Both the position numbers and the translations under genes were made by a program. A stretch of 49,662 bases of DNA from Escherichia phage 1W, in the sequence record OM475428; one strand, given 5' to 3'. The notes beneath the pieces were generated by a model, which searched no databases, was not told the origin of the DNA, and saw nothing but the letters and a program-made list of their open reading frames with translations. Positions 2,413 to 7,156 of this stretch are shown piece by piece (the first letter of the stretch is position 1; every line of letters begins with the position of its first letter).

Positions 2413-2602
2413 ACTGCAGGCGCTGCGTCAGGCGCGCCTTGATTTATTAACCGGTAAACGGGTGGTGTCTGTCCAGAAAGATGGTCGCAGAATTGAATAT
2501 ACGGCGGCTTCTCTGGATGAGCTTAACCGGGCGATCAATGATGCGGAGTCGGTACTGGGGACAACCCGGTGTCGCCGTCGTCCGCTGGGAGTGAGGTTAT
2601 GA
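2396..2602 (+). CDS. W: Head-tail joining protein W
   Basis: 68 aa, same length and motif (LTGKRVxxVQKDGRR) as lambda gpW; overlaps the A stop. Confidence 0.85.
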   Translation: MVTVAELQALRQARLDLLTGKRVVSVQKDGRRIEYTAASLDELNRAINDAESVLGTTRCRRRPLGVRL

Positions 2603-4191
2603 AACGAACGCCTGTCCTGATTGATGTGAACGGCGTTCCGCTTCGTGAGAGTCTCAGCTACAACGGGGGCGGTGCAGGATTTGGCGGGCAAATGGCTGAG
2701 TGGTTGCCACCGGCGCAGAGTGCCGATGCGGCCCTGCTGCCCGCGTTGCGTCTGGGGAATGCCCGGGCAGATGATCTGGTGCGCAATAACGGAATAGCGG
2801 CTAATGCGGTGGCTCTGCATAAGGATCACATTGTCGGGCATATGTTTCTGATCAGCTACCGTCCGAACTGGCGCTGGCTGGGGATGCGGGAGACCGCAGC
2901 AAAAAGCTTTGTCGATGAGGTGGAGGCGGCCTGGTCGGAATACGCCGAAGGGATGTTTGGCGAGATCGACGTGGAAGGAAAACGCACGTTCACGGAATTT
3001 ATCCGTGAAGGTGTGGGCGTTCATGCGTTTAACGGCGAAATCTTTGTGCAGCCGGTCTGGGATACGGAAACCACGCAGTTATTCCGTACGCGTTTTAAAG
3101 CCGTGAGTCCGAAACGGGTGGACACGCCTGGACACGGTATGGGGAACCCTTTTCTGCGGGCCGGTGTGGAGGTCGATCGATATGGCCGTGCCGTCGCGTA
3201 CCATATCTGTGAGGATGATTTTCCGTTCTCTGGTAGTGGACGATGGGAACGGATCCCGCGTGAACTTCCCACCGGGCGTCCGGCCATGTTGCATATTTTC
3301 GAGCCGGTGGAGGACGGGCAGACCCGTGGGGCTAATCAGTTTTACAGCGTCATGGAACGGCTGAAGATGCTCGATTCCCTGCAGGCAACACAGCTTCAGT
3401 CGGCCATAGTGAAGGCGATGTATGCAGCGACGATTGAAAGTGAACTTGATACCGAAAAGGCCTTTGAATATATCGCCGGCGCGCCACAGGAGCAGAAGGA
3501 TAATCCGCTTATTAATATTCTGGAGAAGTTTTCCAGCTGGTATGACACGAATAACGTGACACTGGGCGGTGTCAAAATTCCGCACCTTTTCCCTGGTGAT
3601 GATCTGAAACTACAGACTGCGCAGGATTCAGACAATGGATTTTCTGCGCTTGAACAGGCGCTGCTGCGGTATATCGCCGCCGGTCTTGGCGTTTCCTACG
3701 AACAGTTGTCCCGTGATTACTCGAAGGTCAGTTACTCAAGTGCCCGCGCCTCCGCCAATGAGTCGTGGCGCTATTTTATGGGGCGGCGAAAATTTATTGC
3801 GGCCCGGCTGGCCACGCAGATGTTTTCCTGCTGGCTGGAAGAGGCACTTCTTCGGGGGATTATTCGTCCGCCACGGGCACGTTTTGATTTTTATCAGGCG
3901 CGATCAGCCTGGTCACGGGCAGAGTGGATTGGTGCCGGAAGAATGGCCATTGACGGGCTCAAGGAAGTCCAGGAATCAGTGATGCGCATTGAGGCCGGAC
4001 TGAGCACGTATGAGAAAGAGCTGGCGCTGATGGGCGAGGATTATCAGGACATTTTCCGCCAGCAGGTCAGGGAATCTGCTGAGCGGCAAAAAGCCGGACT
4101 CTCACGTCCGGTGTGGATAGCGCAGGCGTATCAGCAGCAGATAGCGGAGAGTCGTAGGCCGGAAGAGGAGACAACACCACGTGAGACGTAA
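2599..4191 (+). CDS. B: Portal protein (gpB)
   Basis: About 530 aa with strong similarity to lambda gpB from recall (NGGGAGFGGQ, FEPVEDGQTRGAN, MAIDGLKEVQE). Start MKRTPV chosen within the listed ORF. Confidence 0.9.
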   Translation: MKRTPVLIDVNGVPLRESLSYNGGGAGFGGQMAEWLPPAQSADAALLPALRLGNARADDLVRNNGIAANAVALHKDHIVGHMFLISYRPNWRWLGMRETAAKSFVDEVEAAWSEYAEGMFGEIDVEGKRTFTEFIREGVGVHAFNGEIFVQPVWDTETTQLFRTRFKAVSPKRVDTPGHGMGNPFLRAGVEVDRYGRAVAYHICEDDFPFSGSGRWERIPRELPTGRPAMLHIFEPVEDGQTRGANQFYSVMERLKMLDSLQATQLQSAIVKAMYAATIESELDTEKAFEYIAGAPQEQKDNPLINILEKFSSWYDTNNVTLGGVKIPHLFPGDDLKLQTAQDSDNGFSALEQALLRYIAAGLGVSYEQLSRDYSKVSYSSARASANESWRYFMGRRKFIAARLATQMFSCWLEEALLRGIIRPPRARFDFYQARSAWSRAEWIGAGRMAIDGLKEVQESVMRIEAGLSTYEKELALMGEDYQDIFRQQVRESAERQKAGLSRPVWIAQAYQQQIAESRRPEEETTPRET

Positions 4192-5686
4192 TCTTTCACA
4201 CATTATTGCCGCAGCATTCAATGAACCGCTGCTTCTGGAGCCCGCCTATGCGCGGGTTTTCTTTTGCGCGCTCGGGCGCGAGATGGGGGCAGCAAGTCTT
4301 TCGGTACCACAACAGCAGGTACAGTTTGATGCTCTCGGAATGCTGGCTGAAACGGACGAGTACATGGCCGGAGGTAAACGACCGGCCCGTGTTTACAGGG
4401 TGGTGAACGGTATTGCTGTACTGCCGGTGACCGGCACGCTGGTGCACCGGCTGGGTGGTATGCGGCCATTTTCCGGAATGACAGGCTATGACGGTATTGT
4501 CGCCTGTCTTCAGCAGGCAATGGCGGATAGCCAGGTGCGGGGCGTACTGCTGGACATTGACAGTCCGGGCGGGCAGGCCGCCGGCGCGTTTGACTGCGCT
4601 GACATGATTTACCGCCTCCGTCAGCAGAAGCCGGTCTGGGCACTGTGCAATGACACGGCCTGTTCTGCAGCCATGCTGCTGGCGTCGGCCTGCTCCCGAC
4701 GGCTGGTTACCCAGACATCCCGTATCGGTTCCATTGGCGTGATGATGAGCCATGTCAGCTATGCCGGTCATCTGGCGCAGGCCGGTGTGGATATCACGCT
4801 GATTTACTCAGGGGCGCACAAGGTGGATGGCAATCAGTTTGAAGCGTTGCCGGCAGAGGTTCGCCAGGACATGCAGCAGCGGATTGATGCGGCGCGCCGG
4901 ATGTTTGCCGAAAAAGTGGCGATGTTTACCGGTCTGTCTGTTGATGCAGTCACAGGAACAGAGGCCGCTGTTTTTGAAGGTCAGTCCGGCATTGAGGCCG
5001 GGCTGGCGGATGAATTAATCAATGCGTCGGATGCCATCAGTGTGATGGCCACGGCGCTGAACAGTAATGTCAGAGGAGGCACTATGCCGCAATTAACTGC
5101 AACGGAAGCCGCCGCGCAGGAGAACCAGCGAGTGATGGGGATCCTGACATGCCAGGAAGCGAAAGGACGTGAACAGCTTGCCACGATGCTGGCAGGACAA
5201 CAGGGCATGAGCGTTGAACAGGCCCGGGCGATTCTGGCCGCGGCGGCACCGCAGCAGCCGGTGGCATCCACGCAGAGTGAAGCCGATCGCATTATGGCGT
5301 GTGAAGAAGCGAACGGTCGTGAACAACTGGCGGCAACGCTGGCGGCGATGCCGGAGATGACGGTGGAAAAAGCCCGCCCGATCCTGGCTGCTTCACCGCA
5401 GGCGGATGCCGGACCATCACTCCGTGATCAGATCATGGCACTGGATGAGGCAAAAGGGGCTGAGGTGCAGGCTGAACAGCTGGCTGCCTGCCCGGGAATG
5501 ACTGTGGAGTGCGCCCGGGCTGTGCTGGCTGCGGGATCAGGTAAGGCAGAACCGGTCTCTGCATCCACAACCGCCATGTTTGAACATTTCATGGCGAACC
5601 ATTCACCGGCAGCGGTACAGGGTGGCGTGCCACAGACGTCAGCAGACGGTGATGCGGACGTGAAAATGCTCATGGCCATGCCATGA
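4181..5686 (+). CDS. C: Head maturation protease / scaffold (gpC with nested Nu3-like C-terminal region)
   Basis: N-terminal two thirds match lambda gpC (ClpP/S49-like; AFNEPLLLEPAYARVFF, VWALCNDTACSAA). GTG start overlaps the B stop. C-terminus carries three tandem copies of an approximately 45-aa motif. Confidence 0.85.
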   Translation: MRRNLSHIIAAAFNEPLLLEPAYARVFFCALGREMGAASLSVPQQQVQFDALGMLAETDEYMAGGKRPARVYRVVNGIAVLPVTGTLVHRLGGMRPFSGMTGYDGIVACLQQAMADSQVRGVLLDIDSPGGQAAGAFDCADMIYRLRQQKPVWALCNDTACSAAMLLASACSRRLVTQTSRIGSIGVMMSHVSYAGHLAQAGVDITLIYSGAHKVDGNQFEALPAEVRQDMQQRIDAARRMFAEKVAMFTGLSVDAVTGTEAAVFEGQSGIEAGLADELINASDAISVMATALNSNVRGGTMPQLTATEAAAQENQRVMGILTCQEAKGREQLATMLAGQQGMSVEQARAILAAAAPQQPVASTQSEADRIMACEEANGREQLAATLAAMPEMTVEKARPILAASPQADAGPSLRDQIMALDEAKGAEVQAEQLAACPGMTVECARAVLAAGSGKAEPVSASTTAMFEHFMANHSPAAVQGGVPQTSADGDADVKMLMAMP

Positions 5687-5722
5687 AGCCAGTGCTGACC
5701 ATCAATAGGAGGTTTTAACAAT

Positions 5723-6070
5723 ATGGTGACGAAAACCATCACTGAACAGCGTGCGGAAGTACGTATTTTTGCCGGTAATGATCCGGCTCATACCGCCACA
5801 GGCAGCAGCGGGATTTCTTCTGCAACACCGGCTCTGACGCCCCTGATGCTGGATGAAGCCACCGGGAAACTGGTGGTCTGGGACGGACAGAAAGCCGGTA
5901 GTGCGGTTGGCATACTGGTACTGCCGCTTGAAGGCACAGAGACGGCGCTGACGTATTACAAGTCGGGAACCTTTGCGACGGAGGCAATCCACTGGCCTGA
6001 AAGTGTGGATGAACACAAAAAGGCCAACGCCTTTGCTGGCAGTGCCCTGAGTCACGCGGCGCTGCCGTAA
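5723..6070 (+). CDS. D: Head decoration protein (gpD)
   Basis: 115 aa; similarity to lambda gpD (DPAHTAT, TPLMLD, YYKSGTF, AFAG) from recall. Confidence 0.85.
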   Translation: MVTKTITEQRAEVRIFAGNDPAHTATGSSGISSATPALTPLMLDEATGKLVVWDGQKAGSAVGILVLPLEGTETALTYYKSGTFATEAIHWPESVDEHKKANAFAGSALSHAALP

Positions 6071-6127: not shown

Positions 6128-7156
6128 ATGGGATTGTTTACGACCCGCCAGTTACTCGGTTATACCGAACAAAAAGTTAAATTTCGTGCGCTGTTTCTGG
6201 AACTGTTTTTCCGCCGTACGGTGAATTTCCATACCGAAGAGGTGATGCTGGACAAAATTACCGGAAAAACGCCGGTGGCGGCCTATGTCTCCCCGGTTGT
6301 TGAAGGAAAAGTGCTGCGTCATCGTGGTGGTGAAACCCGCGTGTTGCGTCCGGGCTACGTCAAGCCGAAACACGAATTTAATTACCAGCAGGCGGTTGAG
6401 CGCCTTCCTGGTGAAGATCCATCTCAACTGAATGATCCGGCTTACCGCCGTCTGCGTATCATTACCGATAACCTCAAACAGGAAGAGCACGCGATTGTCC
6501 AGGTGGAAGAAATGCAGGCGGTAAATGCTGTGTTGTATGGCAAATACACCATGGAAGGAGACCAGTTCGAGAAAATTGAGGTCGATTTTGGCAGGTCGAC
6601 GAAGAATAACATCACTCAGGGTAGTGGTAAGGAGTGGTCAAAACAGGATCGTGACACGTTCGATCCTACACATGATATTGACCTCTACTGCGACCAGGCC
6701 AGCGGTCTTGTGAATATTGCCATTATGGACGGTACCGTCTGGCGTCTTCTGAATGGTTTTAAGCTGTTCCGCGAAAAACTGGATACCCGTCGCGGTTCAA
6801 ATTCTCAACTCGAAACGGCAGTGAAAGATCTGGGCGCAGTGGTGTCCTTCAAGGGGTATTACGGCGATCTGGCCATTGTGGTGGCGAAAATGTCTTATAT
6901 AGCAGAAGACGGTATCGAAAAACGTTATCTTCCAGATGGCATGCTGGTTCTGGGGAATACTGCTGCAGATGGGATCCGTTGTTACGGTGCCATTCAGGAT
7001 GCTCAGGCGTTGTCCGAAGGTGTGGTGGCCTCTTCCCGTTATCCGAAACACTGGCTGACGGTAGGGGATCCCGCCCGTGAATTTACCATGACGCAGTCCG
7101 CGCCGCTGATGGTGTTGCCGGACCCGGATGAGTTTGTGGTGGTACAGGTGAAATAA
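6128..7156 (+). CDS. E: Major capsid protein (gpE)
   Basis: 342 aa, lambda gpE length and position; HK97-fold capsid gene after D. Confidence 0.9.
   Translation: MGLFTTRQLLGYTEQKVKFRALFLELFFRRTVNFHTEEVMLDKITGKTPVAAYVSPVVEGKVLRHRGGETRVLRPGYVKPKHEFNYQQAVERLPGEDPSQLNDPAYRRLRIITDNLKQEEHAIVQVEEMQAVNAVLYGKYTMEGDQFEKIEVDFGRSTKNNITQGSGKEWSKQDRDTFDPTHDIDLYCDQASGLVNIAIMDGTVWRLLNGFKLFREKLDTRRGSNSQLETAVKDLGAVVSFKGYYGDLAIVVAKMSYIAEDGIEKRYLPDGMLVLGNTAADGIRCYGAIQDAQALSEGVVASSRYPKHWLTVGDPAREFTMTQSAPLMVLPDPDEFVVVQVK

Follow-up and report, generated by a model that had tools for sequence, protein, structure and literature searches.

The prohead protease gene of Escherichia phage 1W, which lies in the stretch of DNA analyzed here (sequence record OM475428, 49,662 nucleotides (nt); hereafter the window), has its closest described relatives in genes 5 and 6 of phage 21 and in gene C of phage lambda, which encodes the protease gpC and, in its 3' part, the scaffolding protein Nu3. 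In the phage 21 head gene operon (GenBank M81255, which we take to be the record of Smith and Feiss, Gene 1993), gene 6 carries three annotated repeat_regions, named "Tri1 box", "Tri box", and "Tri3 box", each with the note "function unknown; putative"; a literature search, which did not cover the publication belonging to M81255 itself, found no paper discussing the Tri boxes. For lambda, the interactions Nu3-E, Nu3-Nu3, C-Nu3, and Nu3-B have been listed (PMC3224144), none of them mapped to the segment that is repeated in phage 21. Scaffolds of other phages bind the N-arm of the capsid protein through a small helical element, which probably contacts the inner face of this HK97-fold protein (PMC11922011).

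In the window, the homologue of lambda gene C and phage 21 gene 5 (positions 4181..5686, plus strand, taken from the open reading frame (ORF) list) encodes a 501-amino-acid (aa) S49 prohead protease with a C-terminal scaffold part. The original prediction on this locus, made from the DNA letters, claimed three tandem related segments in the scaffold part, where lambda gpC was said to have one, and ascribed about 60 additional residues to repeat expansion, with a possible effect on procapsid assembly. The three segments are indeed present and correspond to the three boxes of phage 21. They are copies of a module of approximately 40 residues with three predicted helices, and together with the tail that follows it this module makes up the conserved core of lambda-type (Nu3) scaffolds; we propose that it serves as a site of protein-protein contact during procapsid assembly.

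Three related units in the scaffold part

The three units, all encoded on the plus strand, are R1 (ENQRVMGILTCQEAKGREQLATMLAGQQGMSVEQARAILAAAAPQ, aa 314-358, positions 5120-5254), R2 (SEADRIMACEEANGREQLAATLAAMPEMTVEKARPILAASPQ, aa 366-407, positions 5276-5401), and R3 (SLRDQIMALDEAKGAEVQAEQLAACPGMTVECARAVLAAGSG, aa 413-454, positions 5417-5542); the interval from 5126 to 5537, in which the segments had been placed, is in frame with the 501-aa ORF and translates to QRVMGILTCQEAKGRE...VLAAG as quoted there. When the units were compared in pairs, BLOSUM62 local scores were 79-101, compared to 22-24 ± 4.6 in 2000 composition-preserving shuffles (z 11-18), with 0 of the 2000 shuffles reaching the observed score, and 19-23 residues were identical among the 36-38 aligned. 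While the protein sequences are thus clearly related, codon-aligned nucleotide identity between units was 52-62% and identity at third codon positions only 33-40%, and neither Tandem Repeats Finder nor find_repeats detected a real DNA-level repeat in the window. The repeat exists only at the protein level; the protein scores, together with the low third-position identity and the lack of a DNA repeat, indicate that it is real and maintained at that level, and it is under selection as protein, with saturated synonymous sites.

Across 218 distinct units, the family consensus reads I-[LM]-x-[CL]-x-E-A-K-G-R-E-x-L-A-x-x-L-A-x-x-P-G-M-[TS]-V-[ED]-x-A-[KR]-x-[IL]-L-A-A-A-P, and many of its columns are 90-100% conserved. 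R3 is the most diverged of the three window units, and at positions 5462-5473 it reads KGAE, where 92% of the family units have the Arg of KGRE. Net charges of R1, R2, and R3 are 0, -3, and -3, respectively. The last unit is followed by a single-copy tail motif (FEHFMANHSPAAV, aa 467-479, positions 5579-5617, plus strand) and by the C-terminal end DADVKMLMAMP (aa 491-501, positions 5651-5683, plus strand), which is kept in the multi-unit group as ...LLMSMP or MLMAMP. In 73 of 130 family representatives, the last unit is followed by the pattern of the tail motif, [FL]xx[AFL]M..P..V, compared to 2 of 105 in an upstream control; the motif also aligns across stand-alone scaffolds, and it could be a capsid-binding or a cleavage element.

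The triple repeat is not new, as it is the ordinary form of the phage-21-type gene and is already annotated in GenBank. Over the whole gene, the window DNA is 99.1% identical to phage 21 genes 5/6, and the two proteins differ at 6 of 501 residues, three of these inside the units (A373V, V429A, and C444S); the gene is also 100% identical in DNA to that of phages 4A7, Lambda_4C10, and 3W. Transferred to window coordinates, the Tri1 box, Tri box, and Tri3 box lie at 5151-5254, 5291-5401, and 5432-5545, respectively, such that R1 and R2 contain the first two and R3 overlaps the third, and the transferred boxes encode the same peptides as the window units except for three substitutions. In OL657228, a second phage 21 record, sites for CII (TTGYN6TTGY) are annotated within gene 6, with window equivalents at 5089-5102 and 5323-5336 on the minus strand. 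As this pattern occurs 8 times in the window versus 11.2 times expected by chance, the CII sites annotated in gene 6 are probably chance matches.

All three units lie downstream of an internal Shine-Dalgarno sequence, GAGGAGG (positions 5073-5079, plus strand, as read from the sequence), which is located 4 nt 5' of the ATG at position 5084, and within the 200-aa ORF that begins at this ATG (positions 5084..5686, plus strand) and is nested in frame as a homologue of the Nu3 and phage 21 gene 6 scaffolds. M81255 has a ribosome binding site annotated at the equivalent position (locus 2393-2397), and the nested ORF is annotated as gene 6 in both M81255 and OL657228; in lambda, AGGAGG and an ATG at codon 309 of C (lambda 5326-5344) align with the window ATG at 5084. 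As judged from these signals, the in-frame internal start would give a scaffold identical to the protease C-terminus, and since the scaffold ORF is nested in frame in the protease gene, all three modules and the tail would be common to the 501-aa protease and the 200-aa scaffold. Of the family collections searched, only PHROGs cover the region, with labels for head maturation protease, for head scaffolding protein, and for capsid assembly protein; matches were obtained to PHROG 53, to PHROG 8399 (head scaffolding protein), and to PHROG 8940 (capsid assembly protein). With regard to lambda, two annotations of the scaffold start disagree, RefSeq placing nu3 at 5132..5737 (201 aa, starting at C codon 239) as opposed to the start at codon 309 (131 aa). 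Later work on lambda uses the 131-aa form of Nu3.

Lambda gpC has 439 aa and a single unit (ENSRIMGILNCEEAHGREEQARVLAETPGMTVKTARRILAAAPQ, aa 357-400), as stated in the original prediction, and this unit is 51-62% identical to each of the three window units. The alignment with lambda, which had been named as a test that could refute the claim, did not refute it; it showed lambda without the three segments and placed the extra length of the window protein in the Nu3 part. When segments were counted from the aligned nested starts, the protease part comprised 301 aa in the window and 308 aa in lambda (-7), the leader from the Nu3 start to the unit 12 and 48 aa (-36), the first unit 45 and 44 aa (+1), the extra units with their linkers 96 and 0 aa (+96), and the tail 47 and 39 aa (+8), for totals of 501 and 439 aa. 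The attribution of about 60 residues to repeat expansion is thus correct in that extra units were added in the Nu3 part, while the difference of +62 aa is only a net figure. Where the window has the tail motif FEHFMANHSPAAV, lambda has LDRLMQGAPAPL. A three-way MAFFT alignment placed the lambda tail (DRLMQGAPAPL...) on the start of R2; this placement was rejected, as the family alignment and the motif count pair the lambda tail with FEHFMANHSPAAV.

Distribution, age, and genomic setting

A profile built from the three units and searched against 1.84 billion representative proteins (E <= 0.001) matched 422 representatives. Among the 143 newly retrieved proteins within the best 150 of these 422 matches, 132 had one unit, 7 had two, and 4 had three. 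The unit typically lies approximately 40-70 residues from the C-terminus of S49 peptidases of 400-550 aa, and it was also found within stand-alone proteins of 80-170 aa, the N-terminal regions of which are variable and often acidic. Three units are present in Salmonella Gifsy-1-type proteins as well as in the representatives P0067, P0076, and P0093, and four units are present in the E. coli representative P0027, which stands for 48 sequences. Among isolated phages, the three-unit form was found in 19 records, while lambda, N15, phi80, and HK-type phages have one unit, and the four-unit form was not found in any isolated phage. Overall, copy number ranges from 1 to 4, with the single-unit form dominant. 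Because single-unit proteins dominate the wider family, the original prediction of an expansion was right in direction; the expansion is, however, ancient and common to phage 21 and Salmonella Gifsy-1-type prophages, and not a peculiarity of the window.

In E. coli, the 603-nt region of the nested ORF is present in 1870 of 5426 complete genomes (about a third), which makes the three-unit gene the common form in E. coli prophages; 1864 genomes cover at least 80% of this ORF, and nearly all sampled rows are exactly 603 nt long. Rare natural variants include a two-unit deletion form with a hybrid R1/R2 junction (P0022), two further two-unit forms that have lost R2 (P0018 and P0016), and a deletion variant, H125 (NZ_AP022003.1), with 546 nt instead of 603. 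Two further rare variants, P0008 and P0011 (the latter standing for 53 sequences), have a 19-aa hole in R2. One Salmonella entry, P0046, joins the scaffold region to an unrelated N-terminus of 60 aa and looks artefactual or rearranged rather than like a real architecture.

The units of the window are closer to units in the same position elsewhere than to their own neighbors. R1 is 81% identical to R1 of the Salmonella protein P0028, 78% to R1 of P0093, and 76% to R1 of P0027, compared to 51-57% identity to R2 and R3 of the window itself, and R2 and R3 are 73% and 62% identical, respectively, to their counterparts in P0028. This pattern dates the triplication to before the split of the E. coli and Salmonella lineages, and the event is thus ancient. 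The Salmonella Gifsy-1-type homologues (e.g., P0028, P0033-P0037, and P0043), which are approximately 60% identical overall to the window protein, share with it the order of the three units and the tail motif, and they have an end reading ...LLMSIP; they differ in that their R3 has the consensus KGRE and in that they extend slightly further at the C-terminus (GTMAAEGEDKS).

The four units of P0027, by contrast, are 76-89% identical to each other and are recognizable as a tandem repeat in the DNA as well (period 138, 3.7 copies, 77% matches), indicating that slippage or unequal crossing-over does occur, and the array in this lineage has recently been expanded or homogenised. The four-unit variant is from E. 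coli GCA_032727965.1, contig ABNWJB010000046.1 (1-1043 of the locus examined). Its head module looks intact, and the capsid protein encoded beside the four-unit gene is 82% identical to that of the window, with the first 31 residues identical. The number of units thus does not follow the type of capsid protein. Genes for GPW_gp25 and Baseplate_J lie downstream of this head module, and the lambda-type head module of P0027 is thus joined to a baseplate of the contractile-tail type. Three fusions of a lambda-like gpC to the N-terminal domain of a tape-measure protein, to tail protein L, or to tail protein U (P0143, P0127, and P0125) were considered as clues to function and set aside, as they look like chimeric assemblies, vector-derived sequences, or rearranged prophages rather than real architectures.

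With regard to the remainder of the gene, a Pfam scan of the 501-aa protein (E <= 1) identified a Peptidase S49 domain (PF01343) at aa 146-293 (positions 4616..5059, plus strand) with an E-value of 1.5e-34 and 119.6 bits against a cut-off of 24.9, and no family beyond aa 293, including none covering aa 302-501. Overall identity to lambda gpC is 53% (E 4e-142). Ser162, in the context "CSAA", pairs with lambda Ser166 ("CSAG"), reportedly the catalytic residue, and is invariant in alignment A1. The protease gene starts with GTG, and its first 11 nt (4181-4191) also form the end of the portal gene, the portal stop codon being the TAA at 4189-4191; lambda C also has a GTG start and overlaps B. The neighboring genes encode the portal protein (2569-4191, 61% identity with lambda gpB), a small Shp/D-like protein (5723-6070), and the major capsid protein (6128-7156, 62% identity with lambda gpE), such that the gene order of portal, protease/scaffold, D-like decoration protein, and major capsid protein is that of a lambda-type head module. 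Other ORFs that cross the region on the minus strand or in a different frame (e.g., 4981-5292 and 5428-5742) had no support and overlap the conserved coding frame, and they were rejected.

A proposed role in procapsid assembly

An AlphaFold2 model of the 200-aa protein, based on a 19-sequence alignment, had a mean predicted local distance difference test score (pLDDT) of 68 and a predicted template modeling score (pTM) of 0.27. It contains three separate three-helix units (pLDDT 73-80, with 76-80 for R1) with linkers of low confidence between them; the tail motif is modeled as helical, and a further short helix lies near the terminus, at residues 190-196. A second model, of R3 and the tail with 43 diverse sequences, gave the same picture. 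With a pTM of 0.27, no fixed arrangement between the units is predicted. A PDB sequence search with the 200-aa scaffold yielded no match at E <= 10, and Foldseek searches of the PDB with both models yielded none with E <= 0.001; hits to c-Myb R2R3 and RecR (E 4-8, probability <= 0.14) were not used. In BFVD, all Foldseek matches were to this C-terminal unit in further S49 prohead proteases.

We favor an explanation in which the modules act as independent beads on flexible linkers, making protein-protein contacts that would bring scaffold and protease into the assembling shell. The beads may contact the major capsid protein at its inner face, other chains of the scaffold, or both of these partners. 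Three beads would offer three contact points per chain, where lambda would have one bead and a longer disordered leader, and after assembly the protease would degrade the scaffold. We put the probability that the units are interaction modules recruiting scaffold and protease into the procapsid in this manner, with three contact points per chain, at roughly 55%, partner and valency being deduced. In support of this explanation, the unit is the element common to all 422 representatives, whether it follows the S49 domain or lies in a stand-alone scaffold, the array measures exactly 603 nt in almost every one of the 1864 E. coli genomes with most of the ORF, and the nested start with its Shine-Dalgarno sequence is found in the window, phage 21, and lambda alike. 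The explanation is also supported by the selection on the repeat at the protein level, the strongly constrained consensus, the separate units in the AlphaFold2 models, the BFVD matches, the PHROG labels, and the interactions listed for lambda. The occurrence of 1-4 units beside nearly the same capsid protein also fits a modular, valency-type role.

Several observations weigh against recruitment through the units. None of the PDB searches, by sequence or by structure, gives the unit a partner; the units are neutral to acidic and, unlike the coat-binding element of the P22 scaffold, do not lie at the extreme C-terminus; conservation is likewise wide for the single-copy tail motif, which could be what truly binds the capsid; natural variants without R2 exist, such that three copies are not obviously required; and the confidence of the AlphaFold2 models is only moderate.

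A more specific proposal, which we advance tentatively, is that the unit may be the capsid-protein-binding module of all lambda/S49-type scaffolds, with copy number (1-4) setting the valency at which a single scaffold or protease chain cross-links capsid subunits. If this is true, multi-unit scaffolds would replace oligomerisation, or a long disordered leader, by tandem sites in one chain, and unit number would be a tunable and evolvable parameter of both procapsid nucleation and the amount of protease packaged.

The main rival to recruitment through the units, although we consider it rather doubtful, is that the units are self-association modules that build a scaffold core through Nu3-Nu3 and C-Nu3 contacts and assemble the protease along with the scaffold, the capsid being bound by the tail motif FEHFMANHSPAAV or by the extreme C-terminus. 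Both of these contacts have been reported for lambda (PMC3224144), the capsid-binding element lies at the extreme end of the scaffold in P22 and 80alpha (PMC11922011), and the tail motif, which 73 of 130 representatives have behind their last unit, is never multiplied. By contrast, AlphaFold2 does not pack the units together, though a single-chain prediction cannot show contacts between chains, and the unit is better conserved than the tail.

Less likely still, and in our assessment improbable, is binding of the units to the portal (gpB in lambda, gp4 in phage 21), by which the portal would be brought into the nascent procapsid. In favor of such binding, the protease/scaffold gene directly follows the portal gene, with which it overlaps. 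There are, on the other hand, many more scaffold chains than the 12 subunits of the portal, and a three-copy module present in every chain is therefore unlikely to be portal-specific; moreover, the portal (61%) is as conserved between lambda and the window as the capsid protein (62%) despite a threefold difference in unit number. In lambda, the procapsid requires Nu3 to incorporate B, and an initiator complex of B, C, and Nu3 has been described, but a yeast two-hybrid screen did not detect the Nu3-B interaction (PMC3224144).

Finally, the notion of a neutral Ala-rich spacer that arose by recent slippage, or of a repeat at the DNA level such as regulatory sites, in either case without specific protein function, is effectively excluded: while the region is rich in Ala, Gln, and Glu, two CII-site pattern matches are annotated inside gene 6 in OL657228, and the units form a DNA tandem repeat in the P0027 lineage, the CII pattern is at chance level, recent slippage is rejected by the lack of a real DNA repeat in the window, and the low third-codon identity next to 19-23 identical residues, the positional orthology with the Salmonella homologues, and the many family columns conserved above 90% all argue against it.

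Returning to the favored role as interaction modules, the unit is the most conserved piece of lambda-type scaffolds, yet its database annotation reads "function unknown". The natural series of one, two, three, and four units on nearly identical capsid proteins represents a set of ready-made constructs for tests of scaffold and protease recruitment.

Comparison with described scaffolds

In the scaffold of phage P22, the coat-binding element is a basic helix-turn-helix at the extreme C-terminus. The window module resembles this element, as well as the scaffold ends of 80alpha and phi29, in that it is also a small helical module of a scaffold, a likeness that we regard as a functional analogy only. 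It differs from the P22 element in that it is repeated, is followed by a further 47 aa, is neutral to acidic, and has no sequence or Foldseek similarity to it. Foldseek against the PDB revealed no similarity to the solved coat-binding elements of P22, 80alpha, and phi29, a search whose power is limited by the small size of the domain and its moderate pLDDT, and instead of a basic element at the extreme C-terminus, the window protein has a 47-aa tail after R3 and unit charges of 0, -3, and -3. As none of the properties by which a P22-type element would be recognized is shared by the unit, the likeness is one of analogy.

The similarities to lambda and phage 21, by contrast, are those of homologues. 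Lambda and the window are alike in the S49 domain, the position of the gene, the internal Shine-Dalgarno sequence with its ATG, a homologous unit, and a homologous tail; they differ in a 36-aa leader, rich in Ser, Thr, Ala, and Asp, which precedes the unit in lambda and which the window protein does not have. Phage 21 gp5/gp6 (head-tail preconnector; M81255, OL657228) shares with the window both the same nested start and the same three boxes.

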